DNA of 64,000 nucleotides, taken from the NCBI RefSeq assembly GCF_964204645.1, contig NC_134032.1, positions 6,994,275 to 7,058,274 on the forward strand. The letters are read 5' to 3'. The notes under the pieces are model-generated. The model was not told the origin of the DNA. It worked only from the letters and a program-made list of their open reading frames with translations, and ran no database searches. Made by a program: the position numbers and the translations under genes. Origin of the DNA: Tubulanus polymorphus (taxonomy: Eukaryota > Animalia > Nemertea). The stretch's first letter is position 1; every line of letters starts with the position of its first letter. Positions 25,429-54,759 of the stretch are shown piece by piece.

Positions 25429-25624
25429 CCCTTTTTTATGATAAACTACATCATGAACTTTAATATGCGTTGTAGTGTCGAACTCTGAGAAATAGTTACT
25501 CGTTATAATGAATTGTTTACTAATGTTCTTTTTCAGGATTTGTTCTAGAGGTATCAGCGGGATATTCACGAGTTGGTTTAAATTCAAAATTTCGGGACGA
25601 AATTTAAACTGGATAGGAAGTGTT

Positions 25625-26013: not shown

Positions 26014-26221
26014 CTTAAAATATTCATATATATATGAATAACATTTAAATTGACAGATTATTCAATATAAAAGTATATATTAACAACATTATTTCAATAT
26101 TCATATTTGTGTGAGTTAGATGTTTAAACATTAAAAGTGTTAGTAAAGTGTGATTGAAATAATACATGATATAAATCATTGAACTTCTAAAATCAATTTT
26201 TAAAAAAAATTTGATATTAAA

Positions 26222-27496
26222 ATGGAAGCAAATAAGTACTACTGCCCAACATGTAATATCAATATAGATAAATCCCAAAAAGCAAGACACAATAAAACTA
26301 AAACACATTTAGAGAATAAATTGAATATAGAATATAAAGATGATATATTAGAAACTAAATTAGATGAATTAAAGAATGAAAAAGAAACATACAAATGTGA
26401 TATATGTTATCAATCATTCAGTGATAAAAGATATTATAATGAACATTTAAAATCTAAAAGTCATAATAGAAATAAGATTAATGATATTTTAGGTGAAGAT
26501 TATTTTGATAAAGATAATGATAAGAAACAGAAGACAATTAAAAGCATAAAAAATAAATTAAACAATAAAAGACCATACATGGAAGATGTAAGAAAATATA
26601 TTAATTCATTAGATAATAAAAAAGATATAGAGATAACCGAAGCATTTAAAAGTGATATTGGTCCAGCAGCTATCGAGTTTAAATTTCATAAAGGAAAAAC
26701 ATTAGAAGAAAATAAAAAACATTTAGAAAATATGAAAGAAATAATAAAAATAATAACTGATGTTGAATATCCTAAAATTAGTATATCAGTTAAAGTAAAG
26801 TTTATAAAATCTGAAGATAAACCAATATATAATATAAATTCTCATTCACAACATATTATATCTAAACAACATATAGATGATAAATTAGATAAATGTTATA
26901 ATGAAGTAAAAACTAAAATAGAAGAGAAATATTTTGAAGGATCTGGTTTAATATTTGATGAAATAATATTTATGACTTTACATGTGTATAACACAAAATA
27001 TAATAAGTTAACTAAATCAAAACCAATAGATGAAAATAATGTATCATATTATAAAGAACCAGATATTGAAGCATCGAGTTATATTAAACTACCATTTAAA
27101 ACTAATGCTGAAATAAATGTACAAAATTTTGATGATAAATGTTTTCTATGGACAATTATAAGTTGTTTACACCCAACAGAAGATATTACACATAGTTTTA
27201 GATTAACTCATTATAAACCATTTAAAAATAATTATAAGATAGATAAGTATCCTGTTAGAATTAAAAACATCCCAAAAATAGAAAGAGATAATAATATAAA
27301 GATAAATGTATTTGATTTAATCAAATTACCAAATACAAAAGGTAACAATATAAAGCATTATACATTAGAACCTTTATACCTATCAAAAGATTATGATTCA
27401 AACGATGTTATAGATATATTATATTATGAGAATCATTATATGTGGATTAAACAAATAGATTTATTTTTTAGAACAGAAAGTGATCGCCAATTCTAA
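26222..27496 (+). pseudogene. polB: Truncated 5' polB created by the tandem duplication
   Basis: Near-identical to 28415-29678, then runs into flanking DNA. Confidence 0.9.
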
Positions 27497-28414
27497 GCCG
27501 GCTTGAAAATGAGGTTAAGTGGTTCCCGCGGCTTCAATTCAAAGAAAACAGGTTTTCACCTACTTCAAATTTAAGCCGAAAACAGGGAAATTAACTGTAT
27601 TTTCCTTATTTGTCGCATACACCCTTTTTTATGATAAACTACATCATGAACTTTAATATGCGTTGTAGTGTCGAACTCTGAGAAATAGTTACTCGTTATA
27701 ATGAATTGTTTACTAATGTTCTTTTTCAGGATTTGTTCTAGAGGTATCAGCGGGATATTCACGAGTTGGTTTAAATTCAAAATTTCGGGACGAAATTTAA
27801 ACTGGATAGGAAGTGTTAGTAATAGGGGTAATAGGCTTTCATACCAAAGGTCGAACGGTCGAGTTCATTAAAAACAAAACATTAAAAGTAATTTAAAACT
27901 ATAATATATTTTCATAACCGTGTGTATTTTATATTATAACTAAATATTTATTCTAAGATATCAATAATTTAAAAAGCATATTATATTAAATCAATTGGTC
28001 GCTCCACTTCGCTACCGCTCCGCGACCAATTGATTTATTTACAATACACAAATTCATATAATCAAATATATTCAAATAATAATAATATTCAACTGAAATA
28101 CACACGGTTATGAAAATATATTATAGTTTTAAATTACTTTTAATATTTGTTTTTAATGAACTCGACCATTCAACCTTTGATATGAAAGCCTATTACCCCT
28201 ATTACTCTTAAAATATTCATATATATATGAATAACATTTAAATTGACAGATTATTCAATATAAAAGTATATATTAACAACATTATTTCAATATTCATATT
28301 TGTGTGAGTTAGATGTTTAAACATTAAAAGTGTTAGTAAAGTGTGATTGAAATAATACATGATATAAATCATTGAACTTCTAAAATCAATTTTTAAAAAA
28401 AATTTGATATTAAA

Positions 28415-31400
28415 ATGGAAGCAAATAAGTACTACTGCCCAACATGTAATATCAATATAGATAAATCCCAAAAAGCAAGACACAATAAAACTGAAACACA
28501 TTTAGAGAATAAATTGAATATAGAATATAAAGATGATATATTAGAAACTAAATTAGATGAATTAAAGAATGAAAAAGAAACATACAAATGTGATATATGT
28601 TATCAATCATTCAGTGATAAAAGATATTATAATGAACATTTAAAATCTAAAAGTCATAATAGAAATAAGATTAATGATATTTTAGGTGAAGATTATTTTG
28701 ATAAAGATAATGATAAGAAACAGAAGACAATTAAAAGCATAAAAAATAAATTAAACAATAAAAGACCATACATGGAAGATGTAAGAAAATATATTAATTC
28801 ATTAGATAATAAAAAAGATATAGAGATAACCGAAGCATTTAAAAGTGATATTGGTCCAGCAGCTATCGAGTTTAAATTTCATAAAGGAAAAACATTAGAA
28901 GAAAATAAAAAACATTTAGAAAATATGAAAGAAATAATAAAAATAATAACTGATGTTGAATATCCTAAAATTAGTATATCAGTTAAAGTAAAGTTTATAA
29001 AATCTGAAGATAAACCAATATATAATATAAATTCTCATTCACAACATATTATATCTAAACAACATATAGATGATAAATTAGATAAATGTTATAATGAAGT
29101 AAAAACTAAAATAGAAGAGAAATATTTTGAAGGATCTGGTTTAATATTTGATGAAATAATATTTATGACTTTACATGTGTATAACACAAAATATAATAAG
29201 TTAACTAAATCAAAACCAATAGATGAAAATAATGTATCATATTATAAAGAACCAGATATTGAAGCATCGAGTTATATTAAACTACCATTTAAAACTAATG
29301 CTGAAATAAATGTACAAAATTTTGATGATAAATGTTTTCTATGGACAATTTTAAGTTGTTTACACCCAACAGAAGATATTACACATAGTTTTAGATTAAC
29401 TCATTATAAACCATTTAAAAATAATTATAAGATAGATAAGTATCCTGTTAGAATTAAAAACATCCCAAAAATAGAAAGAGATAATAATATAAAGATAAAT
29501 GTATTTGATTTAATCAAATTACCAAATACAAAAGGTAACAATATAAAGCATTATACATTAGAACCTTTATACCTATCAAAAGATTATGATTCAAACGATG
29601 TTATAGATATATTATATTATGAGAATCATTATATGTGGATTAAACAAATAGATTTATTTTTTAGAACAGAAAGTGATCACCATAATAAAATGTATCTATG
29701 TAGAAAATGTTTACATAAATTCAGTAATGAAAGTACATTATTAAATCATAAACAATTATGTGAAAATCATGATTATTGTAAATTAGTTTTACCAAATGAA
29801 AAGGATAAAATATTAGAAATAAAAAAATATGATTACAAAAATAAAGTACCATTTGTAATATATGGAGATTTTGAATCATTAAATAAAGAATTAACTGATC
29901 AAGATAGAAAAGAAATATATTATAAAAGAAAGAAATTAAATTCTAATGAAAATTATTTTTCTGATGAACCACCAAAAACAAATACTATTAAAAAGATTCA
30001 TCAATCAGCTGCAGCTTTCGGGTTATATATTGAATCTGATTATCCAGAACTAATTGAAAGTGAATATTATGATTATAGAAATGAAAATGTTATCAATCAT
30101 TTTGTGACTTATTAATTGAATATGAAATAAGATTTAGTAAATTATTGAATACAAATATAGAAATTATAATGACAGAAGAAGATAAAGAAGAATTTGCGTT
30201 TGCAGATAAATGTTATTATTGTGAAAAGATATTTAATTATAAAGATAAAAAAGTAAGAGACCATGATCATTTGAATGGAAAGTTTAGAGGCGCCGCGCAT
30301 GAGAATTGTAACTTACAAGCTAAGAAAATTAACTTTGTACCAGTTATATTTCATAATCTATCAGGATATGATGCACATTTATTCATCAAACAGTTATGCC
30401 ATAAAATAGAAGAAATCAAAAATGAAATAGAAAGATTAAATTCAAATAGATCAAAAGATAAAATACCAACTTATAAATTTAGAATGTTAGCTAAAACATC
30501 TGAGAATTATATATCATTCCAATTTGGTTGCCTAAGATTTATAGATTCATATAGATTTTTAAATAGTTCATTAGATAACTTATCAAAATCATTAGTTGAT
30601 GATGAATTAAAAATATTAAAACAACATTACCCAAATAATGATGATTTTCAATTAATGAGATATAAAGGCGCAATTCCATATTCATTTTATAAATCACATA
30701 ATGATTTAAACATAACTGAATTATTGAAAGAACAATTCTATGATGAATTAAAAAATGAATATGTTAAAGATGAAGTAGATAATAGAACATTGAATATTTG
30801 GAATCATTTCAAAATAGAAAATCATGGACAATTAGTAGATTTATATTTAAAATCAGATGTATTATTATTAACGGATATATTCGAAAGGTTTAGAGATGTA
30901 AACCTAAAATATTTCAATATTGATCCTTGTCATTGTTATTCTAGCCCAGGTTTAACATGGGATTGTGGATTAAAATTTACAGATATAAAAATGGATTTGT
31001 TAACAAATATAGATCAATTACTATTATTTGAAAAATCTATAAGAGGAGGAGTTTCAGGTGTATTAGGGGATAGATATTTCAATGTAAATGATAACCCTGG
31101 ATATAAGTTATTATATATAGATGCAAATAATTTGTATGGTTGGGCAATGATGGAACCACAACCTTATGGAGTATTTGAATTAACTGAAGTTTTACAGAAT
31201 GAAAATAATGATAAATTTGATTGGAAGAAAAGAATTCTAGATATTGCAGATGATTCAGATACTGGTTACTTCTTTGTTGTAGATTTAGAATATCCTGAAC
31301 ATATTAAATTTAAATCTAGAAATCTAGCTTACTGTCCCGAACATAAAACTGTAACTCATGAAGAATTATCAAATTTCCAAAAAAGAATTAAACCTGAAAA

Positions 31401-32454
31401 TCATATTCATACAGAAAAGTTAATGGTAACTCAAGAAGATAAATATAATTATGTAGTACATTATAGAATGTTAAAGTTTTATTTGAATCAAGGAATGGTT
31501 CTAAAAAAAGTACATAGATATATTTCATTTAGTCAATCTAAGTGGTTAGAAAAATATATAGATTTTAACACCAAACAGAGAACTAAAGCTAAAACTGATT
31601 TCGAGAAAGATTTCTTCAAGTTAATGAATAATGCATTCTTTGGAAAAACTTGTGAAAATATTAGAAATAGAAATGATATTGAGTTAGTTAGTAATGGTAA
31701 AAGAATAAGACATTAACAATCATATCCTAAGTTTTTAGGTAACAGAATATTTGATGAAAATTTAGCCGCAGTTAAAATGAGAAGAACATCAATGAAATTT
31801 AATAAACCAATCTATGTTGGCGCTTCAGTTTTAGAATTATCAAAATTCCTAATGTATGAATTCTATTATAATATATTACAACCACTTTTTGGAGAAAAAC
31901 ATATAGAAATATTATATTTTGATACTGACAGTTACATATTAAAGATAAAAACTGATAACATAACTGATGATTTAAAAACATTAAAACATCATTTTGATTT
32001 CAGTAATTATCCTAAACATCATGAATTGTTTAGCAATGATAATAAAAAAGTTCCCGGTAAATTCAAAGATGAATTAGGTGGTGAAGAAATGATTGAATTC
32101 ATTGGTATTAGATCTAAAATGTATTCATATAAAACTAAAGAACATGAAGCTAAAAAGTTAAAAGGAATAACCGAAAGTGTAGTAGAAAAGAATATTCATT
32201 TCAAAGATTACATCAATTGTATATTCAATGAAGAAGTTAGAAAACATAAGATGGGATGTTTAAGATCTGAAGATCATGAAATGTTTATTGAAGAAATTGA
32301 AAAGATAAGTCTAAACCCATTTGATGATAAACGATATATTTTAGATGATGGAATTCATACAGTTGCTTATGGTTGTAATTTAGATGAATACTTAAAATTT
32401 AAAAGAGAAGAAACAAAAGAGAACGAGATACTGAAAAGAATTCTAACGTGTTAA
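28415..32454 (+). pseudogene. polB: pPolB of E2 (frameshift near 30100, stop at 31714)
   Basis: Three ORF fragments colinear with E1 PolB. Confidence 0.93.
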
Positions 32455-32483
32455 TCAAATTTTAATAAAAATATGTATTATAA

Positions 32484-32837
32484 ATGGAGAGTAAACAAGC
32501 ACACAGTGAGAACAACAAATTATTTCTAGATAGAATTAAAGATATAACAAATGTAAAATCTGTAGATTATAAATTCAAAAAGTTAACAGAATTAATAATC
32601 CATAAGAAATATCTAATTACAAGTATTGATACAGTTACTAACAAATATGGAGATAAATTAGTTATACACTTAGAATATGAAGGATTAAAAGGAAATACAC
32701 ATAAATTCAGAACATATTTACCAGATAGATTTCATAGATTATCAAGTGAAGATCTAGAAGAATTATGTTCTGGAGATTTCTATTTCGTATACAAAGGTAA
32801 GAATGAAAAGGGGCATCATGAAATAGATTTCGAATAA
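32484..32837 (+). CDS. Putative ssDNA-binding protein (E2)
   Basis: Orthologue of 11164-11505. Confidence 0.55.
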   Translation: MESKQAHSENNKLFLDRIKDITNVKSVDYKFKKLTELIIHKKYLITSIDTVTNKYGDKLVIHLEYEGLKGNTHKFRTYLPDRFHRLSSEDLEELCSGDFYFVYKGKNEKGHHEIDFE

Positions 32838-32854
32838 GAAAATATGTAAAATAA

Positions 32855-33608
32855 ATGGTGGAATTAAAAGAATACAGAATATTTGTAGATTCTAGATGAC
32901 TTACAAATTATAAATCTCATAATTTACTAGTACAATTAGATAGAGAATTCAAGAATTGTGTAGATTTAAAATTAGTAAATATAAGTTTATGTAATTCTTT
33001 TTACAATGTATCGGATAAAACTTTTGAACATAGAGGGTTTATGATTTATATGAGAAATAAAGATAAATGGTTTCATATATTTTTAAAACCAGGATTATAT
33101 AATTTAGATCATTAGCGCAGGAAATTAATAGAAGAGCTCGGTTGAAAATCGGGGGCACTTCTGTATTTGAAATTAAATTTAATAAAATTGATAGTACTAA
33201 TAAAATAAGAATAAAGATATCTAATGAACAACATAAATTTATGGTAAACAAACCACTGGCTAAAATGTTCGGAATTAAACCGCTTACAGTTACTGGAAAC
33301 GCAGAAGGCAGCTCAAATATAATACCTTTTACACACTTTTATATTTTTTGCAATTTAATCGAGCCTACAAAAACTTTCGAAGAAACTAAAGAAACAATTT
33401 GTAGTTCTAGTATACTAAATATTTTACCACTAAAAATGTTAAACAATTTGGAACTCAAATAAATTATGATTTAACAGAATGTGATTTTAAACCTTGCATT
33501 CCTAAATTTAATAATTTTAAATTAGAAATAAGAAATCACAATGGATATTTAATTGATTTGAATAACTTTCCTGTAATTTATGAATTAGTTATAAGATGTA
33601 AAGAATAA
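32855..33608 (+). pseudogene. Penton of E2, disrupted
   Basis: Starts MVELKEYRIFVDSR then TGA; 3' part matches the E1 penton with frameshifts. Confidence 0.78.
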
Positions 33609-33625
33609 TTTTTTTCACTATATAA

Positions 33626-33957
33626 ATGACTATAACTGTTGGGCCGAGTATATGTTTTGGGTTTGATTTTAAACATGAGAAAGAAATGAAATTTAACATT
33701 ACTGATGTAATTACACATATCAAAAATATTACATTTTCTGGTAAAACAACATTTGAGTATGAAACAACAATAGATAAAGAAACTTTAAATGTAGAAATTC
33801 AAGATTTTATGAATTAGATGAAGATTTTATCATCGATGATATTAAAAAAATAATAATTGAAATATATACAAATGAAACTAGTAATGAAATAAATGTTGAA
33901 TTAATCACAAATAAGATAACTACATATTTTGATGATAGTAATTTTTTTGATAAATAA
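33626..33957 (+). pseudogene. Orthologue of the 113-aa ORF with an internal stop
   Basis: Shared ITVGPSICFGFDFKH start and YFDDSNFFDK end. Confidence 0.7.
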
Positions 33958-34179
33958 ATGAGTGATAATAAGTGGATAATAACTGGATTATATAATGGAG
34001 CATTACTATCAGTTGGAACTGTTGGTTATTCAATGGTATTAAAAAAAGTATTCAAAATGGGAAGTGTTAGTGTTGATAGATTTGATATAAATGATATTTT
34101 AAAATTAACATTAGCAGTTACTTTATCTAATTTAACTATTGATTATTTGGAAAAACAAAAATATATTCCTTCCATATAA
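33958..34179 (+). CDS. 73-aa hydrophobic protein (E2)
   Basis: Orthologue of 9805-10026. Confidence 0.7.
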   Translation: MSDNKWIITGLYNGALLSVGTVGYSMVLKKVFKMGSVSVDRFDINDILKLTLAVTLSNLTIDYLEKQKYIPSI

Positions 34180-34203
34180 ATGCGTAATTATTTTACTAAA
34201 TAA

Positions 34204-34629
34204 ATGGCTTCTGCAATTATAACTATTATAGGATCAGCAATTGTTAACGCTTTAGCATTTACTGGTGGTGGTTATTTATTTAAACATATTGATAAAAATG
34301 GATCATTATCAGAACAAAAAAGACATAACTTAGCATTAGAAAAATACAATAAATCAGCAGAAGAATATAGAGAAAAGAGGCAAAACTATATGGATTACAT
34401 CAATAAAGAATTATATGATCAGAAGATTTCACATAGAGATTTTCAATCAGTCGATGATGCAATGAGTTTATATAACGCGGTAACAAATAAAGAAAAATTA
34501 CATCTATACAAACCTAAATTATCAGATTATTATACCCCAAGTAATGAACAGAAGAAATATGAAATAATATGGATTTTAGGTGTAACGGTTATTGTTATAT
34601 TTGTTGCTTATAAGTTTACTAATAAGTAA
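34204..34629 (+). CDS. 141-aa amphipathic/TM protein (intact)
   Basis: MASAIITIIGSAIVNALAFTGGGYLF; C-terminal IIWILGVTVIVIFVAY. Confidence 0.75.
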   Translation: MASAIITIIGSAIVNALAFTGGGYLFKHIDKNGSLSEQKRHNLALEKYNKSAEEYREKRQNYMDYINKELYDQKISHRDFQSVDDAMSLYNAVTNKEKLHLYKPKLSDYYTPSNEQKKYEIIWILGVTVIVIFVAYKFTNK

Positions 34630-34645
34630 TTTTTTTGCTAAATAA

Positions 34646-35080
34646 ATGGAAGATAAAGTTGATAATATTGATATTATTTCTCATGGTATAAATAAAACTA
34701 AATTAAAAACATATTTAGAAAAACAAATATTAGAATTTGAAAATGACTTAAAGATAAAAAAGAAAAAATATTTAAAAAGTAAAATTATATATTATTTGAT
34801 TATAAGTGGTTCGGTTACAATTAGTTCTGTAATAACATTTCTAGCAATATTCAGTCCATTAACACCTTTAGCTATATCGATTGGTGTATTAGGATTAAGT
34901 GCAAGTGTTTTAACTGGTATAAGTTCAAAATTGAATATAAAAAGTAATAAAGAAAAAATTAAAACTAATATAAAAGAAATTAATAAATTGAAGAATACGC
35001 TAGATTATATAATAAGTTTAAATGGCCATATAACAGTTGAAGAACAAGATAAATTATTAAAAGAATTAGTTAATTATTAA
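34646..35080 (+). CDS. Two-TM membrane protein (E2)
   Basis: Orthologue of 8901-9335. Confidence 0.75.
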   Translation: MEDKVDNIDIISHGINKTKLKTYLEKQILEFENDLKIKKKKYLKSKIIYYLIISGSVTISSVITFLAIFSPLTPLAISIGVLGLSASVLTGISSKLNIKSNKEKIKTNIKEINKLKNTLDYIISLNGHITVEEQDKLLKELVNY

Positions 35081-35096
35081 TTTTTTAGTTATATAA

Positions 35097-37332
35097 ATGG
35101 GGTTTCCAAAAGCTTTCCAATATAATAAATCAATTAAATATAATATTCCGGCAATAGATTTTAAGAAAAATATTACATATAAAAATGCAGTTTTAAATTC
35201 ATTAACTAATTTGGAAATTTATGTTACTGAATCACAGTTTTTTATTTCTAAAATGGAAAATATATTTAATACATATAAAGTTACTTTTACTCGAGATGAA
35301 TATCATATATATAAAGTAAAATCTAATATGAAATATTGGCAGAACCAATTAGATTTTGCTGTTTATTGTGCAACAACAGGATGTGGAATAAGTTGGAATG
35401 ATCATTTAAATAACTTAGATAAAAATTTGAAGTATTCTGATTTAAAATTAATTCACACAATATTTAGATTTCACACATATTTTCAAATCAGAATAATATT
35501 AAATGAATTAGAATGTCCTTTACCCGGGTCTAAATATTTTAAAGAATTGGATAATAATATTAATCTATCTAAGCTTTATAAAATATGTAATGAATTTAAT
35601 ATAAATATTAATTTCGATTTCAGAGCGCATGGTAAATTGCAAGGTGTTGGTGAAGAGTTTGAAATAAAAAGAATTGATTATATGCATAGAATTTCAGCTT
35701 ATCATAATTATAAAATTGATAATAATAATGGTTGGGTTAATTTCATTTTAGAAAATGGTGAAGGTTTTACAAAATCAGGTATACAAAGAATAAATAAATC
35801 TATTAGAACTTATTTGATATTTATTTTAGGTGCGCAAGTTGAAACAAGATCCCCAATAGTTGGAAATGATAACACTTCATTCGATGCGCAGAAACAATTC
35901 AAAGTATTATTTGAAGATTCAATTCATAATGATAAAAATAGATCGATTCCAGAAAACATTGTAAGATATCAAAATTATTTAGATAAATCACATGATGCAG
36001 AAACTAATATTGATGATGGTAATGAATCAGCATATAATTCTAATTTAGCAGATAGTGGTTCTAAAGGCCAATCAACAGATGAAGAACTAGATCTAGATAG
36101 AAGAACTAGATCTAGAATACCTATTGAAAATGAAAATCCAGGTTTATTAAATGAAAATTTAGAATATAATGAATATATTTATAATTTCAAACCTATATTT
36201 GAAAAATCTGGATATAATATAATTGCCAGAGGCGCAAGACTTTTAGTACAAGAATTAAAATCTTTTGATGGTGAATATTATTATCATTTGAAAGATGATT
36301 ATTATATTGATATCTCTTATAAAAAACAAGAAAAAATATTAGCAAAATCAACTTTGCTTAGGTTAGACCTATCTAAAATCAAAAGAAATAGTAATGAAAT
36401 AGAAGATGTAACACAAGAAGAAATTATTAAAAATGAAAGAGTATTTAAACAAAGAATTAATGAATTATTTGAAACAATCGATAATAATTTAGAAACAGAA
36501 ACAACTTCTGAACAGAATATAACTTCCAAAACTAGTAAACTTAAATCAAATAAAGTTCCAATTGAAACTTTTACCGAATGGATTAATTGATGCAACAGAT
36601 CAATAATTAGAAGATTTAGATATATTTTCTGATAAAGCAATAAGAGAAATTATTAGTATAAGACTTGCATCTAAAATTAGAACTTTAGAAAAAGAATTAA
36701 CTGATAAAAATAAAGAAATAGAAAAATTAAAGTCTGATTTAGATCATCAATTACTTGACAAAATAGAATATGGGCAAAAAGAATCACGTTTAGAAAAAGA
36801 AAAAGATGATTTAGAATATAACATAGAATTACAAAAAGAAGAAATTAAATTATTATTAAAATCATATGATTATAATATTAATAGATTAAAAGATGTTTTT
36901 AAAAGATATCTAATAAAACCAAATTCTAAAATATCATTGAAAGATAGAATAAAATTATTATTTAAGTTTGAAGGAATAACAATTCTTTCAATTCTAACAG
37001 CTGTAACTATGGTATTTACAACAATAGGTTTAGCAATATCAAATTCACTGAAATCTACTCCTACTCCCAATAAACCAGATAAACCTCCAGGTAATAATTC
37101 TATACAAGATAAAGTTAAAGATGGTTTAAAGAAATTAGCAAAATATTTATCGGAACTATCTAAAAAATCTGCTGCAGCTTTACCAGGAATTATTGCATCA
37201 ATTGTTGGTTTAATATTGAAATCTGCAGGGAATATTATTAACTTTGCTGCTGAACATATTATTTTATTTTTAATTACAGTTGTAAGTGCTATTATTTTTG
37301 GGTTAGTGAATATGATAACAAAAAATAAATAA
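35097..37332 (+). pseudogene. Deletion-fusion of the 471-aa gene and the coiled-coil/TM gene, then frameshifted
   Basis: Junction ...YLDKSH|DAETNID... near 35992; frameshift near 36570; TM tail at 36937-37332. Confidence 0.8.
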
Positions 37333-37352
37333 TTAATTTTTTTGTTAAATAA

Positions 37353-38568
37353 ATGAGTGGGAGTTATATCAATCCTTCTAAGAATCATAGAATATCTAAT
37401 GCTATTAAAGCAGAAAGATCACATCATATGATTACTCATAACCCTTCTAATATTAATCCCGATGAAACTGTATATGTTAGAATTCCTAGATTAACACAAA
37501 ATACTTTTTATGTTCCAAATAGTATTTATTTATCAGCCGATATAAAAGTAATCGGTAACAATAATAATTATGTTGTTGATAATGTTGGAAGATATTTGAT
37601 TAAAAAATTAACTATAAAGATTGGACCAGAAACAGTTTTCTCATTAGATGATTATAATTTATTTATGCATTATAAAGATTTATGGTTAACTAAAGAAAAT
37701 AGAAATAATATGATATTTCAAGGCATCCAATCAGAACACCAAAATAAATTAAGATCTGAAGCCAATAGCGCAATATTAACTAATGCTGTAGATAAATTGA
37801 TAAAAAGTATATATGGAAGCAAATATAAAATTCCATTAGACTTTGAATTGATAAATAACAATGCGCCTTTATATAAATATGCAATTCAAGAAGATGTTAT
37901 ATTCGAAATAACATTTGCTCCTGTAAATGAAATTGTAATATCTAGCGTTAATAAAGATATCAGTTATAAATTATCGAATATATGTTTAGAATATGACACA
38001 GTAACTAATGAAAATATTGCTAGCACAATTCAAACTCAATACAATCAAGGATTTTCATTATTGTATGATTATATTGATAAATTTAAAACCGTAACTATTA
38101 ATGCAAATGATGAAATTATTAATGAGAATATTAACTTCCCAAGAAGATCTATTAAAGGTATATTAATATTTTTTACCATTGCAACATATACTAATGGTGC
38201 AATAAATGTTGATAATTATTATAATCCTGAAATAACAAAAGTAGAAATAACTATCGAAGGAATAGCAAATAAAATATTTTGTCAAGGAATGAGAATGATA
38301 GATCAATGGCCAGAAATTAGAAAACATTTTATGAATGAAAAAGTAAAATCATCTGAAAATTGTAATATTAATCAAATTGATTATTATACCGGCAATAAAT
38401 ATGCATTATGGTTAGATTTTAGAACAACAGAGGATAATTCATTACATGGTTCTGGAATAATTCATGACAAAGAATAAAGGAATCAAAAATTTTAAAATGC
38501 ACATTTATATTATATCTGACGCGCAATTAAATATTGTAAATTCACAATTAGATAGTGTTATGTATTAA
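37353..38568 (+). pseudogene. Major capsid protein of E2 with a small 3' deletion and frameshift
   Basis: Matches E1 MCP up to LHGSG; KKLQNTKDG segment missing. Confidence 0.8.
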
Positions 38569-38600
38569 AATTTTAACTTTAATAAAAATATATATAATAA

Positions 38601-39566
38601 ATGGAAGGAGGTAAAGTATATAAACATATTCCATACATCGATACACATGAAAATAATGATGGTTTATATTATGTAATACCTTGTAATATAGCTTTGATAT
38701 TTGATCCTATTTTCAAAATTTATAAAACTAAACTAATAGAAATCAATAATAATAAAAGTGGTGTTGTTGATAATTTAAGTAATGTAATTGATAATAATGT
38801 AATACCTTCTACATCTAATAATGTAATACCTAATACATCTAATAATGTAATACCTACTACATCTAATAATGTAATACCTACTACATCTAATAATGTAATA
38901 CCTTCTACATCTAATAATGTAATACCTTCTACATCTAATAATGTAATACCTTCTACATCTAATAATGCAATAATATTAAATGTTAGTGAAAATAGAAATT
39001 ATTGTGATTATTGTAAAGGTGAATTTTCAAACGCTCCATCAAATTGGAATAAACATATGAATACAAATTCACATATTACTAATGTTATAGAACGTGTTGG
39101 TTTAAGAGAATTTATAGAACACCCATTTAGATATGTTACAAAATTTGTTTCAAATAAAAAAGTAAATGGTAAAGAATTATATGAAGATTTTTTATTAGCA
39201 ACACCTAATAAAGATGAATTAGATTTAACCGATGCTAATAAAATATTAGGATCAAACACTGTAAATGAAATACTAGGAGCAAACACTAATAACGATGATA
39301 ATGAAAATGGTGACGTATGGCACCCACATGGTGATATAGTTACAGATATTGATAATAAAGATTCTATGAAACATAAAGTAGAAAATAATGATAAATTTGA
39401 TTGGATGAATAAGCATAACAATGAAACAACTATTGATGATTCGGTAAAAAGGATGAAAAAGTATAAAGAATTTGAAGAAGAAAATTCGGTAGAGAAATTG
39501 AATAGCTTGTTAAGGCATGATAGTGAAAGTGATTCAGAAATTAATTATCTAACACTCAAAAAGTAA
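38601..39566 (+). CDS. Variable Zn-finger protein with NNVIPSTS repeats (E2)
   Basis: 24-bp tandem repeat at ~38792-38965; homologous to 3604-4509 with a divergent N-terminus. Confidence 0.7.
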   Translation: MEGGKVYKHIPYIDTHENNDGLYYVIPCNIALIFDPIFKIYKTKLIEINNNKSGVVDNLSNVIDNNVIPSTSNNVIPNTSNNVIPTTSNNVIPTTSNNVIPSTSNNVIPSTSNNVIPSTSNNAIILNVSENRNYCDYCKGEFSNAPSNWNKHMNTNSHITNVIERVGLREFIEHPFRYVTKFVSNKKVNGKELYEDFLLATPNKDELDLTDANKILGSNTVNEILGANTNNDDNENGDVWHPHGDIVTDIDNKDSMKHKVENNDKFDWMNKHNNETTIDDSVKRMKKYKEFEEENSVEKLNSLLRHDSESDSEINYLTLKK

Positions 39567-39956
39567 TAAAGGTTGAAAATTGTATAAAATAATAGTAAAT
39601 AAAAAAGGGGGTTTTAAGTATTGAGGTATATAATACATATATAATACGTATTTAATACGTATCTAATACGTATCTAATACATATTATTTGAAAATACCTT
39701 AAATTATATTTCTTTTTTAAATTTATGTTAAAACCTCAGTAATAATAAATAACCTTTATTATTTTCAAACTTATTCCTATATTTGTTGAAAAAATAAAAA
39801 TAAATTGGTTGAAAATTGTATAAATAATATTTATTTTAAAAAAGGGGGTTTTAAGTATTTAAGGTATCTAATAGGGTATCAGGTATTAGGGTATCTAATA
39901 GGGTATCAGGTATTAGGGTATCTAATAGGGTATCTAATACATAGATATATAAATAG

Positions 39957-40564
39957 TTATTTTATAAATTTATATTCATAGGGAAATTGTAATCTCAGTA
40001 ATAATTTTGAACCTCTATTATTCTTTGATTTATTCATATATTCATCATGTAATTCAGTAGGTATAATTTGATTTTCTTCCAATGATTGTTGAATAGATTT
40101 TCTATCTTTGTTATAAAATAAAACTAGAAATCTTATATTCTCCCTAAAGTCTTTAACAATTGAATTATATTTTTGATTTAAAACCCATGTTGTTATCCCG
40201 AAATGTCTCCCAGAGAAAGCTAGATAACATAACTCACTTTCACTTTTGAATCATGTGAATTAGCGCAATCATCTACAATGAATAATGTATTTGATCCTTT
40301 ATAAGTATCAATTGCTATTTTTATACAATTATCTAAATTGTCTTTTACTGTTTTAGGATCTAATATAATAAACTTTTTCATCTTAACTATATCTCTATTA
40401 TATGTTTTATTCATTTCATAAGTAGGACAGAATAATATTATATTATCAAAATGATTCTTATAAATAGTTTCTAACAAATCTAATATGAAATGTGTTTTAC
40501 CACAGTTGGTTACTCCAGTTATTAACATATTATGCGGTTCAAATATAAATAAATCTTTATTCAT
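39957..40564 (-). pseudogene. Packaging ATPase of E2, frameshifted
   Basis: GVTNCGKT present; small deletion after HDSK. Confidence 0.88.
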
Positions 40565-41673
40565 TTATTCTTTTAATTTTACTAGATAAAATCCATTCAT
40601 TAAATTTATCATCATATCCTTTATATTTCACCAAAGAATATTTTTTTCTTTTAAGAGTTTTTGTTTTCAATACTTTCTATTTTGTATTCTATTTCATCTG
40701 GATTTGGTACAAGTGATAATTCTTGTTCATAGAAATAACCTAATATTTCTTCATCTTTTATATCTTCTAATTTATAAACAAATGGTTTAATAATATTATC
40801 TTTTTAATCTTGAATATTTCTTCTGTAATATTTGGGGTATAACCTTTATAAAATGTTTTTCTATATTTAGATATTCTTACGTGTTGTCCTATTTTAAATT
40901 TAGGTTCACCGAAATCATGTGTAACGAACGCACCATACAAATTATTCCAAACTATTTCTGAATTATCTTCTTTTCTAGCTTGTATAGGTTTCATATTTAT
41001 AGAACTATGTTTAGAATTATTATAACCTTTCACTAAATCATCTAATACATCGATATATTTATATGTTTCATTAGCAGTAAAGTATTTCCACATTCTAGTT
41101 TTCAATGTTTTATTAAATCTTTCTATAATAGATGCTTTTTTATCTGAGTGTGTTGAAAAATACTCTACATCGTTATCAGATAATAGTTTTTTAAAATGTT
41201 TGTTATAAAATTCTTTACCTCCATCAAATTGTATCTTATCTGGAATAGCTTCTTTAAATATAGATTTAAAAGCATTTGTTACTTCTATACCAGTTTTATT
41301 TTTGATTGGAATTGACCATGCGTATCTACTGAATATGTCTATAACATTCAGTATCCAGAAATATCCTTTGTTGTATTCTTCTAAGTTCTTCATGTCAATT
41401 AAATCTGCTTGCCACTGTTGATCGATATATGAAACCATAACTTTTCTTGTTAAATAAGTTTTATCCATTTTCTTGTGGATTTGATATGTTGGTTGATTTT
41501 GTAACCATGATTTCAATTCACTATATTTTATACCACCATGTGGGTGCCATACGGCACCATCACCATTTTCTTTATCAGATTTAATTTTATTTCATAATTC
41601 TGTAACGTTAGAATATGATACTTCACTTTCTGGGTTATAATATAAATCTCTTAAATATTGTTCTTTTTTTCAT
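40557..41673 (-). pseudogene. Integrase of E2, disrupted
   Basis: Catalytic core ORF 40767-41516; 5' stop/frameshift and 3' frameshifts. Confidence 0.88.
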
Positions 41674-41679
41674 CTTATT

Positions 41680-42069
41680 TTAATCCATTAATAATAATTT
41701 AGATTTAGTTTCAATGGCTTTATGATTTGATTTATTTTCTGGTATAATAGGTTTATTGTCTGTACACGGATTACTAAGTTTCCGATTATCATTGGAATCA
41801 TCTTTATCATCAGATTTGAATTTTGATTTATATATTACACCGGATAATATAATAACTGTTACTAATCCAATTGTAATATATAATTTATAATTACTTCCAG
41901 CATTAGAAGAATCAGATGGATTATTAATTGAATCAATATCAGATAATTCATTTATATCAGTTAATTTCTTTTTCTTAGCTTTTTTTAATTCTGCAGATCT
42001 TTTACCTAATTCTCTTGCCCATTTAATTTTTTTCTCGGATCTAACCTTTTTCTTAACTCCATCACTCAT
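41680..42069 (-). CDS. Small basic single-pass membrane protein (E2)
   Basis: Orthologue of 1371-1769. Confidence 0.75.
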   Translation of the reverse strand: MSDGVKKKVRSEKKIKWARELGKRSAELKKAKKKKLTDINELSDIDSINNPSDSSNAGSNYKLYITIGLVTVIILSGVIYKSKFKSDDKDDSNDNRKLSNPCTDNKPIIPENKSNHKAIETKSKLLLMD

Positions 42070-42658
42070 TTATTTTAGTTACTTTTTGTTCTGATTCATT
42101 TTCTGTTTCACCGTTTGGTTGTAGTTCATCTGTTTCGTTCTTACCTGATTTATATTCCATAGGCTTGATATTCGAAAATGTTATGACGCCAGTAGAAATT
42201 AATGTCATAACCGATCCTAATTGAAATGAAGCATATCCAACCCATTTTTGTAATTCACTCATAACTAAGTAGTCATTTTTCAAATCACTATATAATTTAT
42301 TTTCATCATTAATTGGTATTAACTGGTTACATAACTTAGAATAACATTTGACAATACCATCTGAAATAGAATCATTTATTCGGGATAATCTAGCTTCTTC
42401 ATAAATCTTAAAATATTTTATTACTTTATCTGGTTTCATAACATCTAATTCTTGAAAAGTCTTAGTTAAAAACTCCTTAGTTTTTCCACCGGCAATCAAT
42501 AGTTCTAGATGATGCTTACAATATAAATAGTATTCATAATCTATATTACAATTAACTTGAGCACAATTAGTTTCAACTGTATCTTCATTATCACTTATAC
42601 CCAAATCATCTAATGTCTTTTCCATATCAATACTATTCTTATTAGATTTCTTTGACAT
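42062..42658 (-). CDS. Conserved protein of unknown function (E2)
   Basis: Orthologue of 776-1378. Confidence 0.75.
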   Translation of the reverse strand: MSKKSNKNSIDMEKTLDDLGISDNEDTVETNCAQVNCNIDYEYYLYCKHHLELLIAGGKTKEFLTKTFQELDVMKPDKVIKYFKIYEEARLSRINDSISDGIVKCYSKLCNQLIPINDENKLYSDLKNDYLVMSELQKWVGYASFQLGSVMTLISTGVITFSNIKPMEYKSGKNETDELQPNGETENESEQKVTKINE

Positions 42659-42959
42659 TTATATTAGAGAAAAAAAGCAAAAAAAATATTATAAGTATTT
42701 TTCAAATGATACTAGTATCTCTTTGGGTTAATACTAGTTAGTTAAAGGTAAAGAATTTTAGTATTAGTTATTGTTTTTTTAGTATTTTTTATTTGTGATA
42801 TAAAGTATTCTTTTTGAAAAGAAAGTATTAAAAAAAACAATAACTAATACTAGCTAGTTGAAGATATGTAATTTTTAATACATTTTATTTGAATTCTATT
42901 TGATATCTCACTACTTTTGTTTATCTATTAGGAGCAGTAATTATAACTGTCCAGATAAG

Positions 42960-43637
42960 TCATTTCGGATCCTTGATATCAAATTCCTCAACATATTGTT
43001 CATTATTTGGATCATTGTTCCATTGATCAATAAATTTCTTTGCCTTTGTTAACTGTTCTAAATATAACTGTAAATCTAGTTTATTAGATTTGATTTGATT
43101 TTCTTTCTTTTCTAAAGGCCTTAAATTTTTCCAACCCCAAATAAGTTTTTTATTGTATTCATCATTCATGTTAAATTTAGATATTGGTAACACGTGATCA
43201 ATATGGTAATAATCCCCATAATTATCTATATTCATTTTATCATCGAATTGAAATATAATCCATGATTTGAGAAATTCATCTGAACAACCCAATAAATTAG
43301 ATAGTGTTTCTGAATGTGTTTCTTTGTTGAATAATCGTGTTAATCTAGATCTTAAGCATTGTTTCAATCTAAAATTAAGATCTGTTTGATATCTTTCTCT
43401 CATATATTCTGCCATATAATAATTAAAATGTTCTATATTATCTTCTCGGTATTGTTTGGTATATAGTTTAGTACAAGTTTTACAGCAATATTGAAAACCA
43501 TCTTTGCTAATCTTACGCTTATTAAATTCTGTTATAGCTAATTTATCTAATTCACATTTAGAACACATCTTGTAGTATATATTTTTGACGCCAGTGTTAT
43601 TTGTAATATTGATAGTTTGTGGTTGTTCTGATTCCAT
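42960..43637 (-). CDS. HNH-family endonuclease with N-terminal CxxC pairs (NCLDV-like)
   Basis: CSKC...CKTC; YHIDHVLPIS...NLRPL...NQIKSNK. Confidence 0.8.
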   Translation of the reverse strand: MESEQPQTINITNNTGVKNIYYKMCSKCELDKLAITEFNKRKISKDGFQYCCKTCTKLYTKQYREDNIEHFNYYMAEYMRERYQTDLNFRLKQCLRSRLTRLFNKETHSETLSNLLGCSDEFLKSWIIFQFDDKMNIDNYGDYYHIDHVLPISKFNMNDEYNKKLIWGWKNLRPLEKKENQIKSNKLDLQLYLEQLTKAKKFIDQWNNDPNNEQYVEEFDIKDPK

Positions 43638-43659
43638 TTATTATACATATTTTTTTACT

Positions 43660-44255
43660 AAATTGATTTTAGAAGTTCAATGATTTATATCATGCATTAT
43701 TTCAATCACACTTTACTAACACTTTTAATGTTTAAAAATCTAACTCATACAAATATGAATGTTGAAATAATGTTGTAAATAAATACTTTTATATTGAATA
43801 ATCTGTCAATTTAAATGTTATTCATGTACATGATTATTTTAAGAGTAATAGGGGTAATGGGCTTTCATATCAAAGGTATGGTCGAGTTCATTAAAAACAA
43901 ATATTAAAAGTAATTTAAAACTATAATATATTATATTCATAACCGTGTGTATTTCAGTTGAATAATAGAATAATTATTATTATTAAAATATATTTGATTA
44001 TATGAATTTGTGTATTGTAAATAAATCAATTGGTCGCGGAGCGGAGCGGTAGCGAAGTGGAGTTTATTTTGAAGTTTATTTTTTTAATATAATATGCTTT
44101 TTAAATTATTGATATCTTAGAATAAATATTTAGTTATAATATAAAATACACACGGTTACGAAAATATATTATAGTTTTAAATTACTTATAATGTTTTGTT
44201 TTTAATGAACTCGACCGTTCGACCTTAGGTATGAAAGCCTATTACCCCTATTACT
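43660..44255. repeat. E2 right TIR, including terminal palindrome 43844-44255
   Basis: Reverse complement of 25625-~26200. Confidence 0.92.
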
Positions 44256-45517
44256 AGTGTTGATCCACAGCTAGATTTTCGTAGTATTTGAAAATGTTTC
44301 GTAGTATTTAGAAATGTTCTTAATGTTGTTTCCGTATGCGTGGGGGTTACGTTAAAGCCGTCAGACAAGAACGTACTAGTAGTAAGAATTACGAAAGTTC
44401 TTGTTTGATGCTTTCATCTACCAACGCAAACCATAAATCAGTCTATAGACAACAATTCTTTCTCGGTTCTTCTGCTGTGAGATCTGGCAAACATTCTGAA
44501 AATCTTTATATACAACTTTTAAATAGTTGGAACCATATTTGGTTGGGTCGGAACAATGGAGTGTATTTATAATGAGGCTCGTGAAGGGATCACGCTGATA
44601 CTTGATGATATTCCCGGCTACGTTCCGTAAAAGGAAAAACCGGAAGTTTAGGAAGATGTGGTTGTTTTGCTTATCCTGTATTAAAATAGAATTAGTTAAA
44701 TTGTAGATAAAATAATTAGTATAAGATATTGATAATCAATCACAATGTATTCCGAATCGTAGTTAATTATAATAATTAAAAAAGAAACAATGAATTTGTA
44801 CTGTAATTAGAAAAGAAAACAAAGTTTTGAAAAGATATTTAATTTGAGTAATCTTGATGTTGTTTAAGAACAAATTGTTAATAATCGCTAATGTTTTAGA
44901 AAAATTAATTTGTGTTAAATGTTAAAACTAGCTGTCTGAAGTTTCTGTTGTCTGTATGCGCTCGTTGGTAATTCACAGACAATAGCTGCTCTCTCAACAA
45001 CGACTAGCAAGGAGTGAGTAAATCACAACGCGTCATGACAGGAGGGTTGGAAGAAAAAGTTTATATCAGCAAATCAGTTTCTAAAAAACCTTTAGATCAG
45101 CAAATCAGTAGGGCTAAATTTTCCGTAACTAAAAACGGTCATGAGAGTTGGGTAGCTGCTCCTTGCCAAAAAGCGGAAGACCCTGCGTGGGAGAATCGGA
45201 ATTCTGAGAATGCCGGTTCTTTCTACAAAAGGGGGCTGCTATCGAGAGAGGAGAGAATCTGTACCTTAGTAAGACGAGTGTCGACAGCAGGGCAGGAGAA
45301 GCTTCGGAACGATAGGGATTCATATACAATAGGGATTAGGAAAATCATTCTTTGTTCAAGGTAAATGAAATATATTATCTTCAATATTATCATCCGGTAT
45401 TTCAATTTATTCATTCGGATTTGTGCACGGACACGTTCTCTCGCCAGGGCCTTACTCAAGTATTTTATAGATAACGATTAAAGAGAGGATTGTGACCGGT
45501 GTATCAATATTGTAAAG

Positions 45518-48500
45518 TTGTTTGTATTATGCGATGACAATTCGGTGCGCCCAATTGAGGCCCTAGTAGTATCTTACATTACCCGTCCAATCTGGGTTGG
45601 GGATAGAAATATTATCGATAATTTTGAACAATTACGCTATTTAAAACTTGCTCATCCAATTGATGATAATCATTATTTTTCTGTTGATTTATTAATTGGT
45701 ACCGATGTCTATTACAGTTTTATGCTAGATATTACCCTGAGGATTGAAACAGGAGGTCTTACAGCAGTCAATACCAGAGTCGGTTATATCATAACCGGTC
45801 CTGTACCTACTGACGTGACACTTCACTCAATGCTAACGACTATGCTCACCGACGTTGAGGACGACAAATTTGATTTGGAGCGTTTCTGGAATCTTAGAGT
45901 CTTTAGGCGTTGAACCCCCAGACGATGATACCACAATCTAATATTACTGCCGAGGATTACTGCAATAACTCGGTACAGTTAGATGAAGATAGTGGACAAT
46001 ACGTAGTCCATTTACCATGGAAGCTGGAACATGGTCCACTACCTACAAACTACGGAGTCTGTCTTGGTAGGACAAAATCTACTATTCAGCGCTTGGTGAA
46101 ACACAACATGCTTGATGTTTATGCCAACATTATCGACGACCAATTAGCAAGAGGTTTTATTGAAAGAGTACCAGACGCCCGTTCGTCGGATACGAATTGC
46201 CACTACATACCACACCATCCTGTTTTCAAGGATTCTGCTACAACTCCAGTACGTGTTGTGTATGATTGCAGCTGTAAGATATCAACTGATCACAACTCAC
46301 TAAACGACTGTCTTGAATCGGGCCCAGCGTTGCAGAATGACATCACGTCTATACTACTTAGGTTTCGTCTTCACCGTTTTGCTACAATTTCAGATATTGA
46401 GAAGGCATTCCTGATGATACGCTTACATGATAGTGAAAAAGATTTCACCCGTTTTCTATGGTTGGATGACCCAGCGGATCCGAACAGTCAATTGGTTACG
46501 TTCAGGTTCCGTGTTGTACTTTTCGGAGCGACCAGCTCACCCTTTATCCTGAATGCAACGATATTAAAACATGTTAGTCTACATCCAGGTCCTGCATCAT
46601 CTGAAATCAAACGGAACTTTTATGTCGATAACGTTACCACCAGTTTTGAAGATGAAGAAATGATATGTGTCTTCTAGAGAGTCTTCGAGACAAATCATGG
46701 GAAAAGGTGGATTCAATTTGCGATCGTGGTGTAGCAACTCTAATCGATTGATGTGTTTGGCAAAAAAAGAGAATGTGGCTGATGAATCTGATAAATTATC
46801 TGTACTTGGGTTGTACTGGTCACCGGAGAACGATACCTTGTCGTTGAAGACGATTGCTATCCATCCTCCGGGGTCTTCGTCGGTCACGATACGTATGGTA
46901 GCAAGTGCAGCAGCGAAACTTTTCGATCCACTTGGTCTTGTACCGCTAGTTGTTCTACGCGCAAAACTATTTCTGCAGACTCTCTGGAAACAGACTAATG
47001 ACTGGGACGCCCTTTTATCACCAGAATTTACGTCAGCATGGTTTGACATTTCACGAGATTAACGACGTTTACCAATCATGACCTTCGACAGACAATATTT
47101 TAAGAATGACTTGAGTCAAGTGACAGATAATACATATGCATTACATGTATTTTCTGACGCGAGCGAAAAGGCATATGGCGCAGTGGCATATTTACATAGA
47201 TCGGATAATACTTGTATACTGATGTCGAAAACAAAGGTTGCACCCCTTCGAAAATTGACTATACCCCGATTAGAGTTGATGGCTGTGGTTATTTCAGTTC
47301 GGTTAGCGAATCATATCATGAAAAGTCTGGACATCAACATTCCTTGTCACATTTGGAGTGACAGCAAGATCGTTCTGCATTGGGTAACCGGGGAAAAATC
47401 ACTTCGACGCTTCGAAGCGAACAGAGTTAAAGAGATTAGAGCTACACCATATGAAATTATATGGCATTTTTGTCCATCGGGCAGTAACCCGGCAGACATA
47501 TCATCTCGAGGCTGTAGTAACGACGCATTAGTTGATAATATGTTGTGGTGGACTGGTCCCGAAATTGTGTCAATCGCCAAGAATTTTGAGTTTTCTCGGA
47601 CGGTTACTTCTATGACTGTTCAGACGGAGACAGTTCCACGACCAAAAACTGACGGTTTGTTTTACGATGTCGGACTAGTGATGGACATTCATAGATTTTC
47701 CAAATTAAACCGATTACTTGGAGCGACTGTTTATCTCATGAGATTCATTAATAAGTTATCTGACTCGACACTAACGTTCCCTGAATATCCGACTATTGAA
47801 GAGTTGAACATGGCCTTAATGCTCTAGGTGTGATCTAGCCAATATGAATGTTTCAATACTGAAATAGCGCTATTAACGAATGGTCGCAAAAATGAAATGA
47901 TCAACAAATTAAGTTTGTTCTTGGATGGTAACATTCTAAAATCAAGGGGTAGAATACAAAATGCACCTGTTAACGAATCAGTTAAATTCCCCATTATTTT
48001 GTCACCGAAACACTATCTTACAAGATTGATTGTTTTACGTACACACCAGAACATTATGCATTTCGGTGTTAGTGCAACAATAGTTGAAGTGAGGCAGAAA
48101 TTTTGGGTACCACGACTTAGACAATTAGTAAAATCATTACTAAGTCGTTGTGTCAAATGTAAGAAACTCCAGGGTAATCATTACAGTTGCCCAGTTCCTG
48201 CTCCACTTCCAGTGTATCGTGTTTAAGATGCGCCACCATTTGCTATCTGTGGCGTCGATTTTACTGGTGCTATTTCGTGTAATAATCATGAAAAGCTTTA
48301 TCTCTGCTTGTTTACTTGCGCGATTACACCTTGTATACATCTCGAAGTCGTTACTGATATGACTGTACATGTATTCATGCAAGCATTTCGACGTTTCGCT
48401 AGTAGGCGGTCATGTCCTAATTTGTTGGTCTATGTTATTTCAAGGGCGTAGGATTAGAAATGTTCCATATCCTGTTGTTGATATTGATGAAATCTGCGAT

Positions 48501-54347: not shown

Positions 54348-54429
54348 CTTAAAATATTCATATATATATGAATAACATTTAAATCATTGAACTTCTAAAA
54401 TCAATTTTAATAAAAAATATAGTATTAAA

Positions 54430-54681: not shown

Positions 54682-54759
54682 AAAAGGATGATGTTGGTCG
54701 AAGAAATGGAAGAGGATTATAAAATACTAACCAATTTAGTAAAAAAATACGTATAATAA

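Follow-up and report, generated by a model that had tools for sequence, protein, structure and literature searches.

The three AT-rich blocks (20-27% GC, within surroundings of 33-45% GC) in a 64,000-nucleotide stretch of contig NC_134032.1 (hereafter the window) are copies of one Polinton-type endogenous virus of 16-18 kb, and most genes of this element carry TAAATG over the start codon behind an A-rich and then a T-rich tract, an arrangement that is likely a poxvirus-type intermediate/late promoter. The promoter signal is real, lineage-wide and specific. The element encodes a protein-primed DNA polymerase (PolB), an rve integrase with a chromodomain, an A32 ATPase, a double-jelly-roll capsid protein and a penton. 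Pfam scans of the open reading frames (ORFs) of the window and of related loci returned no RNA polymerase family (unassigned ORFs being at most 485 amino acids long), in agreement with the first-pass annotation, which had proposed a polymerase-free satellite; neither a capping enzyme nor a transcription factor was detected among the window ORFs scanned. We consider it probable (roughly 0.65) that the element is a germline-integrated satellite read by the intermediate/late (post-replicative) machinery of a pox-type helper.

TAAATG at gene starts in the window and in related loci

The first-pass annotation had reported TAAATG at 12 of 15 gene starts in each of two copies. In copy A, the count is indeed 12 of 15, with TAAAATG at PolB, CAAATG at the gene resembling a single-stranded DNA-binding protein (SSB) and TAAGATG at the integrase; copy B, where the start of g9 is missing, has the motif at 13 of 15 (PolB TAAAATG and integrase TAAGATG, at 41673, being the exceptions). 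Copy C has it at 6 of 8 starts scored, its capsid start being left out of the count. TAA precedes only 42/611, 36/635 and 16/378 of the other ATGs in copies A, B and C (4-7%), giving Fisher P values of 1.9e-11, 6.8e-15 and 4.4e-7, so the predicted enrichment held. The promoters of PolB and HNH lie in opposite arms of one terminal inverted repeat, and as evidence they count once. Promoter sites quoted at 33958, 34646, 37353, 32484, 38601 and 54430 read as claimed, and a seventh, at 54760 before the HNH gene, did not: its sequence is TTTAGTAAAAAAA, not TTTAATAAAAA. Two further details were borne out in copy A: one gene, g5, takes its TAA from the stop codon of the gene before it (g4), and the integrase and g15 both end in INE* across the start of the next gene.

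Aligned pieces of the three copies are 81-96% alike; the copies are thus not independent, and the independence of the motif evidence comes from related loci. A capsid alignment fetched 83 such loci (the 80 best of 188 in metagenome contigs and 3 in genome contigs), in which we counted the starts of genes homologous to window genes whose N-termini agreed within 25 residues. Three branches, comprising 23 loci, have TAAATG at 63 of 70 homologous starts: 46/52 in the 16 loci around the window, 15/15 in another 6 loci and 2/3 in L075. The other 60 loci have it at 2 of 171. Position -3 differs likewise, being T in 64 of 70 starts of the TAAATG branches versus a purine, as in a Kozak-type context, in 138 of 171 starts elsewhere. 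Members at 40-44% GC (L007 and L008) keep TAAATG, whereas relatives at 26-28% GC lack the habit (L020, 1/9; L021, 0/4; L061, 0/3), which shows that the motif is not a matter of composition.

On the capsid tree (a quick tree of 81 rows), the trait needs three changes. We did not favour several origins of TAAATG over one, as an approximately unbiased (AU) test does not reject a single clade (p 0.125, 31 rows, LG+G4). On L087, a contig from a different Polinton-like lineage, every start (7 of 7) is TAAATG, which suggests a second lineage with the same promoter wiring. That contig also encodes a protease-like domain fused to an integrase with chromodomain (L087:2740-4251), whose protease motif is presumably adenain-like.

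Other features were noted in the related loci. A close relative of the window element carries a deoxynucleoside kinase gene with a TAAATG start (L003:10340-10981; Pfam dNK, E 2e-31); the kinase led to one unrelated viral contig without TAAATG and was dropped. The g7-like genes of L009, L012, L013 and L061 have N-terminal LYP and PSAP/PTAP-like motifs, which we take to be ESCRT late domains. No capsid relatives were found among viral contigs.

Promoter anatomy and an entomopoxvirus control

To describe the promoter, we collected 94 TAAATG starts from 19 loci (four near-duplicate loci omitted) and 14 window genes. T stands at -12 in 79 of them (P 1e-16) and at -13 and -14 in 68 and 67; A stands at -18, -17 and -16 in 56, 57 and 52, and also at -6 and -4. 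Where TAAATG is not at a start, T occupies -12 in only 46 of 163 cases. In published descriptions, a vaccinia late promoter consists of TAAAT(G) preceded, at a distance of ten bases, by a conserved T; an intermediate promoter has TAAA and, 15-19 bases before it, an AT-rich tract followed by T (PMC11980589). If counting begins at the first A of TAAAT, where transcription is taken to start (PMC6211774), the T at -12 lies ten bases away, and the anatomy of the element is within one base of the published description, depending on the counting origin. The match to poxvirus intermediate/late promoters proposed in the first-pass annotation survives this comparison, with TAAAT over the start codon, an upstream T and an A-rich tract (PMC11980589; PMC4542343). 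The element differs from poxviruses in using the motif at ~85% of its genes, including the DNA polymerase (TAAAATG), a gene that is early in vaccinia.

The surroundings of the starts also bear on the nature of the signal. Of 80 starts, only 3 take their TAA from the stop codon of the gene upstream, and at 28 the neighbouring gene is divergent. Some divergent starts lie only 14-30 bases apart with TAAATG on both strands, as in the back-to-back pairs of poxviruses, and in such pairs a single tract is a T-run on one strand and an A-run on the other. We rejected the T-run as a terminator of the upstream gene: T-runs are equally common at divergent (9/29) and tandem (19/53) starts (P 0.81), and are therefore part of the promoter.

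Two promoter classes had been proposed, one for structural and membrane genes and one shared by PolB, the SSB-like gene, HNH and the zinc-finger gene. This was borne out in part. Scores for A minus T over -20..-14 have a bimodal distribution (mean square 10.8 versus 6.4; 0 of 2,000 shuffles), but gene family accounts for little of the score (P 0.036, 74 starts). All 3 zinc-finger starts fall in the A class and all 5 g5 starts on the T side, yet both starts of the penton, a structural protein, are A-class too, and capsid starts range across the two classes (score -4 to +5). One A-then-T architecture with a sliding boundary fits better than a strict split between replication and structure. In vaccinia, D13 (capsid-like) and A32 (ATPase) are intermediate, and E9 and I3 (polymerase and SSB) are early. 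From a satellite with access to post-replicative transcription only, one would expect the genes for replication to sit behind intermediate-like variants, and the window fits this expectation. The exact A-class motif had 0 matches among viral contigs.

A scan of viral contigs for back-to-back TAAATG motifs provided a control. It covered 36 of 64 collection parts and gave 120 loci, 80 of which have flanks; this is a motif-selected set rather than a survey of nucleocytoplasmic large DNA virus (NCLDV) families. Only one of the 80, L165, has TAAATG at more than 40% of its starts (13/19; the next are 3/8 and 5/15), and it is an entomopoxvirus, with spheroidin, NPH-II, G9/A16, E10 and L1R. When two neighbouring stretches are added, the tally is 23 TAAATG starts among 41; 15 of the 23 carry T at -12 (P 0.016), and the virus has back-to-back divergent TAAATG pairs of its own. 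Scored with a weight matrix built from the 23 entomopoxvirus starts, element promoters beat their own shuffles (0 of 2,000), the window alone did so at P 0.011, and AT-rich relatives without TAAATG showed no excess (P 0.23).

Poly(A) signals were examined for signs of nuclear or cytoplasmic transcription. AATAAA occurs 80 times on the coding strands of 18 window genes (~5 per kb) versus 83 expected from synonymous shuffles, and the ratio is 0.96 in clade I and 0.97 in entomopoxvirus genes. At the convergent 3' ends of TAAATG loci, poly(A) signals are no more frequent than chance would give (2/14 versus 3.6 expected). Undepleted AATAAA and the lack of a 3' excess would suit cytoplasmic transcription, although the test is a weak one, given how little relatives without TAAATG differ. 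A poxvirus early-type terminator was considered and set aside. In clade I, T5NT is low (11 versus 33 expected), but so are T5NV (37 versus 70) and T6 (3 versus 27), so the depletion is inseparable from general T-run avoidance and gives no evidence of early-type termination; in the non-TAAATG genes of the entomopoxvirus, only T5NT is low (5 versus 16; T5NV 59 versus 57). Six-T runs are thus nearly missing from the sense strands of clade I, where six-A runs are far less depleted (ratio 0.67).

Candidate transcription machineries

Under the satellite model, the helper polymerase would start within the AAA of TAAATG and slip, adding an untemplated poly(A) leader as in vaccinia. Such a leader would replace the templated context, which would explain why T stands at -3 instead of the purine kept by relatives. 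The satellite would be confined to the helper's post-replicative system because early poxvirus transcription occurs inside the helper's own core. PolB, the SSB-like gene, the penton and the ATPase would be expressed from the A-rich, intermediate-like variants and most other genes from T-rich, late-like ones; the element would then replicate with its own PolB, package with its own ATPase and capsid, and use its integrase to deposit copies in the germline. The model does not account for the first access of a nuclear copy to a cytoplasmic polymerase; for mavirus, a late factor entering the nucleus has been proposed (10.1101/068312).

Several observations weigh against this reading. Neither the window nor the TAAATG loci yielded a gene of poxvirus origin, and the products of g8, g9 and g15 could be transcription factors. 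Genes of coral polintoviruses are reported as expressed with no known helper (PMC11131425), in a set that is not matched to the window's lineage. The entomopoxvirus resembles the element loosely: the two position profiles correlate at r 0.33 (P 0.13), or r 0.45 at a one-base shift, an A-tract is not clearly seen in its promoters, and the search motif itself selected 2 of its 23 starts. Relatives without TAAATG likewise have divergent starts with very short gaps. AATAAA separates the groups poorly, these relatives being mildly depleted (0.85 and 0.48; z about -2), and they too mostly lack poly(A) signals at their 3' ends.

The foremost alternative, which we regard as unlikely, is that host RNA polymerase II (Pol II) reads the motif in the nucleus, alone or through a factor of the element (g8, g9 or g15), and that the element is autonomous with very short leaders. 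It would dispense with the problem of access, as the copies lie in chromosomal DNA, and the conserved genes without assignment offer candidates for redirecting Pol II; expression of coral polintoviruses would also suit it. However, g8, g9 and g15 are present in relatives that lack TAAATG, and T at -3 would be poor for translation unless a leader replaces it. The poly(A) signal counts described above likewise speak against Pol II, and trans-splicing is a poor fit, with AG within the last 12 bases at only 17 of 82 starts.

An improbable alternative retains the satellite and moves the helper outside Poxviridae, to a large DNA virus with a similar TAAAT initiator acquired by descent or convergence. 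TAAAN initiators with polymerase slippage and poly(A) leaders do exist in the yeast cytoplasmic linear plasmids pGKL1/2 (PMC6211774), which resemble the element as AT-rich elements with a protein-primed PolB, but unlike it have their own RNA polymerase and capping enzyme and lack a capsid and an integrase. The loose fit of the entomopoxvirus profile also leans this way. In addition, a Pox_VLTF3-like late factor is encoded by three relatives without TAAATG (L028:385-933, L060:5082-5579 and L080:5746-6387), which ties the family to NCLDV transcription generally; VLTF3 was already known from some polintoviruses (PMC11131425). A homolog search with VLTF3 returned 5 unnamed proteins, and a profile built from the three relatives found nothing in the window or the TAAATG loci. 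Two of the three, L060 and L080, have TATA-rich sequence 5-20 bases ahead of most starts. Against a non-pox helper, the entomopoxvirus was the only one of the 80 motif-selected viral loci from 36 of 64 collection parts, several giant-virus contigs from metagenome-assembled genomes included, with TAAATG throughout, and TAAATG is retained to the deepest chordopoxvirus (PMC4542343).

It is very improbable that TAAATG is a translation signal, whether for stop-start coupling on a polycistronic RNA or as a lineage-specific start context. Genes are tightly packed, one start per copy uses TAA as the upstream stop, and two overlap ATAAATGA, but with so few starts coupled overall (3/80) and 28/80 having no same-strand gene upstream, coupling accounts for little; a fixed T at -12 and an A-tract at -18..-16 would also be unexpected of a ribosome context. 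Chance in a very AT-rich element (22-25% GC) is refuted by the scarcity of TAA before other ATGs and by the GC-rich relatives that keep the motif while AT-rich ones lack it.

Gene content, ends and known relatives

The copy described in the first-pass annotation, copy B, and its surroundings are laid out in Table 1. Besides the core set, the element has a possible SSB, an HNH-like gene, a variable zinc-finger gene and seven genes without assignment. Several genes are broken in each copy, and some are better preserved elsewhere. The penton has 253 amino acids in copy A (10385-11146, minus strand), and its AlphaFold2 model (pLDDT 84.7) has the mavirus penton as top Foldseek match (E 8e-12). The major capsid protein of the same copy (415 amino acids, 4542-5789, minus strand; model pLDDT 84.9) best matches PBCV-1 and iridovirus capsids (E 8e-16). 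It has no match to the Sputnik major capsid family of Pfam, which the control L085 matches at E 4e-41. The A32-type ATPase has 203 amino acids in copies A and C. Copy C also has an integrase of 362 amino acids (56650-57738) and an HNH-like gene with a weak Pfam match (HNH_4, E 0.034). Of the unassigned genes, g8 is conserved and g9 encodes a coiled coil with a hydrophobic C-terminus; g8 and g15 had no informative match in the ESM Atlas, PDB sequences or PHROGs. No window ORF scanned matched an adenain-type maturation protease in Pfam, a search that a very divergent protease could escape, and a g8 profile compared with the protease domain of L087 gave a probability of 0.25%. The element is thus an endogenous virus of the Polinton type in which no maturation protease can be recognised.

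Table 1. Features of copy B, the neighbouring copies and the flanks, in window coordinates
Feature	Positions	Strand	Details
Copy A	1..15916	-	inverted; far end beyond window; 12/15 starts TAAATG
2.2-kb tandem duplication (99.9%)	25290..29682	.	takes in host flank, left end and 5' part of PolB
Left target-site duplication AGTGTT, copy B	25619..25624	+	repeated at 27812-27817 by local duplication
Copy B	25625..44255		starts AGT, ends ACT, flanked by AGTGTT
Outer left terminal unit, copy B	25625..26013	.	starts AGT; ~390-bp imperfect palindrome, ~80% self-complementary
Left terminal inverted repeat, copy B	27817..28423	+	holds PolB promoter (A-tract, TAAAATG)
PolB region	28415..32454	+	Pfam DNA_pol_B_2 E 5e-16, Endonuclease_7
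g2, putative single-stranded DNA-binding protein	32484..32837	+	A-tract promoter, TAAATG; ESM Atlas lead only (phi29 SSB clusters, score 0.85)
g3, penton (minor capsid protein)	32855..33609	+	broken; A-tract promoter, TAAATG
g4	33626..33957	+	interrupted in copy B; T-tract promoter, TAAATG
g5, conserved hydrophobic protein, 73 aa	33958..34179	+	T-tract promoter, TAAATG
g6, conserved, 141 aa, hydrophobic ends	34204..34629	+	TAAATG
g7, two-membrane-helix protein	34646..35080	+	T-tract promoter, TAAATG; weak Pfam SLATT_fungal, E 0.007, below cut-off
g8 and remains of g9	35097..37332	+	rearranged, broken in copy B; g8 with T-tract promoter, TAAATG
Double-jelly-roll major capsid protein	37353..38477	+	truncated in copy B; T-tract promoter, TAAATG
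Variable zinc-finger gene, 24-bp repeats	38601..39566	+	A-tract promoter, TAAATG
Non-coding junction of two convergent gene blocks	39567..39950	.	short repeats, imperfect inverted repeats
A32-type packaging ATPase	39953..40564	-	broken; TAAATG over integrase stop; Pfam Pox_A32 E 3.5e-12
Retroviral-type integrase with chromodomain	40557..41673	-	broken; TAAGATG start; Pfam rve E 2.6e-9, Chromo
g14, small conserved protein	41680..42069	-	TAAATG overlaps g15 stop
g15, conserved helical protein	42062..42658	-	T-tract promoter, TAAATG
HNH-like endonuclease	42960..43637	-	TAAATG; promoter within right inverted repeat
Right terminal inverted repeat, copy B	43629..44255	-	ends ACT
Right target-site duplication AGTGTT, copy B	44256..44261	+	
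BEL/Pao retrotransposon remnant, flank	45925..48226	+	Pfam Peptidase_A17 E 2.5e-25
Copy C	53934..64000	.	rearranged; runs off window

Copy B has the termini by which Mavericks/Polintons are recognised (as in PMC8097293), namely terminal inverted repeats, AG..CT ends and a 6-bp target duplication. Its inverted repeats are ~610 bp long (27817-28423 versus 44256-43629, 91% identity). The ends of the element are imperfect palindromes of 270-410 bp with a GC-rich central hairpin (25625-26013, 27818-28206, 43844-44255, 53934-54347 and 15649-15916), possibly a replication or resolution structure. Where convergent genes meet, 4 of the 5 regions inspected contain unrelated short repeats that form inverted repeats (58341-58739 and 39626-39687 in the window, L002:3720-3837 and L005:3163-3275); these are candidate hairpin terminators. 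A-rich TGAAAA motifs resembling poxvirus early promoters lie in the gene-free junction (39569, 39782 and 39805 on the plus strand, 3601 on the minus strand) with no ORF behind them, and are absent from copy C, L001, L002 and L005.

The flanks (15979-18108, 45925-48698, 49116-49533 and 50787-53000) hold an LTR-retrotransposon gag/protease remnant, the BEL/Pao remnant and 51-bp and 31-bp satellite arrays. To our knowledge, BEL/Pao elements are confined to animals, and the remnant is the main evidence that the host is likely an animal. Three DNA-like sequencing runs, all from the same study, span the full 30 bins and contain many variant contigs; a single run that may be RNA yielded 4 scraps, which carry no information on expression. 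Capsid relatives with 54% identity (cluster P0046) were deposited as Bartonella proteins on short contigs, and likely represent host-animal DNA in those assemblies.

Among known systems, the element is closest in content to Mavericks/Polintons (Polintoviricetes, including 'adintoviruses'; PMC8502044, PMC8097293, bioRxiv 10.64898/2026.06.19.733378), with which it shares the protein-primed PolB, rve integrase, A32 ATPase, double-jelly-roll capsid and penton, as well as long inverted repeats, AGT..ACT ends, the 6-bp target duplication and multiple copies in an animal genome. It differs in lacking a detected adenain-type protease, a trait of group 1/adintoviruses, in having a pox-type promoter at most genes, and in ends that are long imperfect palindromes. 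Two related loci combine the same capsid module with a large helicase-type gene in place of the protein-primed PolB (L040:8794-11034 and L046:9967-13596), and these replication genes resemble group 2 of the bioRxiv study. Sections 5 and 7 of that study give the current grouping and contain no promoter data, and the word 'promoter' is missing from the main text of PMC8502044 and PMC11131425.

Entomopoxvirus-associated Polinton-like viruses (PLVs; Barth et al. 2024, PMC11296320) are likewise small and have been proposed as poxvirus hyperparasites. Unlike the window element, they come from occlusion bodies, all have a cysteine protease and some have a tyrosine recombinase. The main text of that paper has 0 matches for promoter, motif, TAAAT or transcription, PLV promoters not being analysed there, whereas the evidence here is promoter anatomy in germline copies; we compared the two by description. 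Mavirus and endogenous virophages (10.1101/068312; 10.1101/2025.10.09.676808) are also integrated elements with protein-primed PolB and rve integrase, no polymerase of their own and a helper-type late promoter, mavirus using the late promoters of CroV (10.1101/068312). They differ in having protist hosts, mimivirus-related helpers, and a virophage-type capsid and protease; reactivation and protection have been demonstrated for them and are conjectural for the window element.

In protists, it is established that integrated virophages carry helper-type promoters. For poxvirus-type promoters in animal Polintons, we found no report in the literature searched, which largely excludes subscription journals; a virophage-like role for vertebrate Mavericks has been raised as a possibility, without molecular evidence (PMC8097293). 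Whether animal Mavericks/Polintons are autonomous or depend on large DNA viruses is an open question, to which promoters give a direct and cheap handle. More tentatively, and less likely than not, a widespread lineage of germline invertebrate Polintons might be provirophages of undiscovered poxviruses, induced by the intermediate/late machinery of the helper, cutting its yield and serving as an inherited defence, with a promoter type that records the helper and has switched more than once. If so, promoter types (TAAATG, TATA-rich with VLTF3, and Kozak-type) could predict unseen animal poxviruses. If the satellite reading itself is true, untemplated poly(A) leaders are to be expected, as is a pox-type virus still unseen in the host group, and the biology of endogenous virophages would reach beyond protists into animal germlines.

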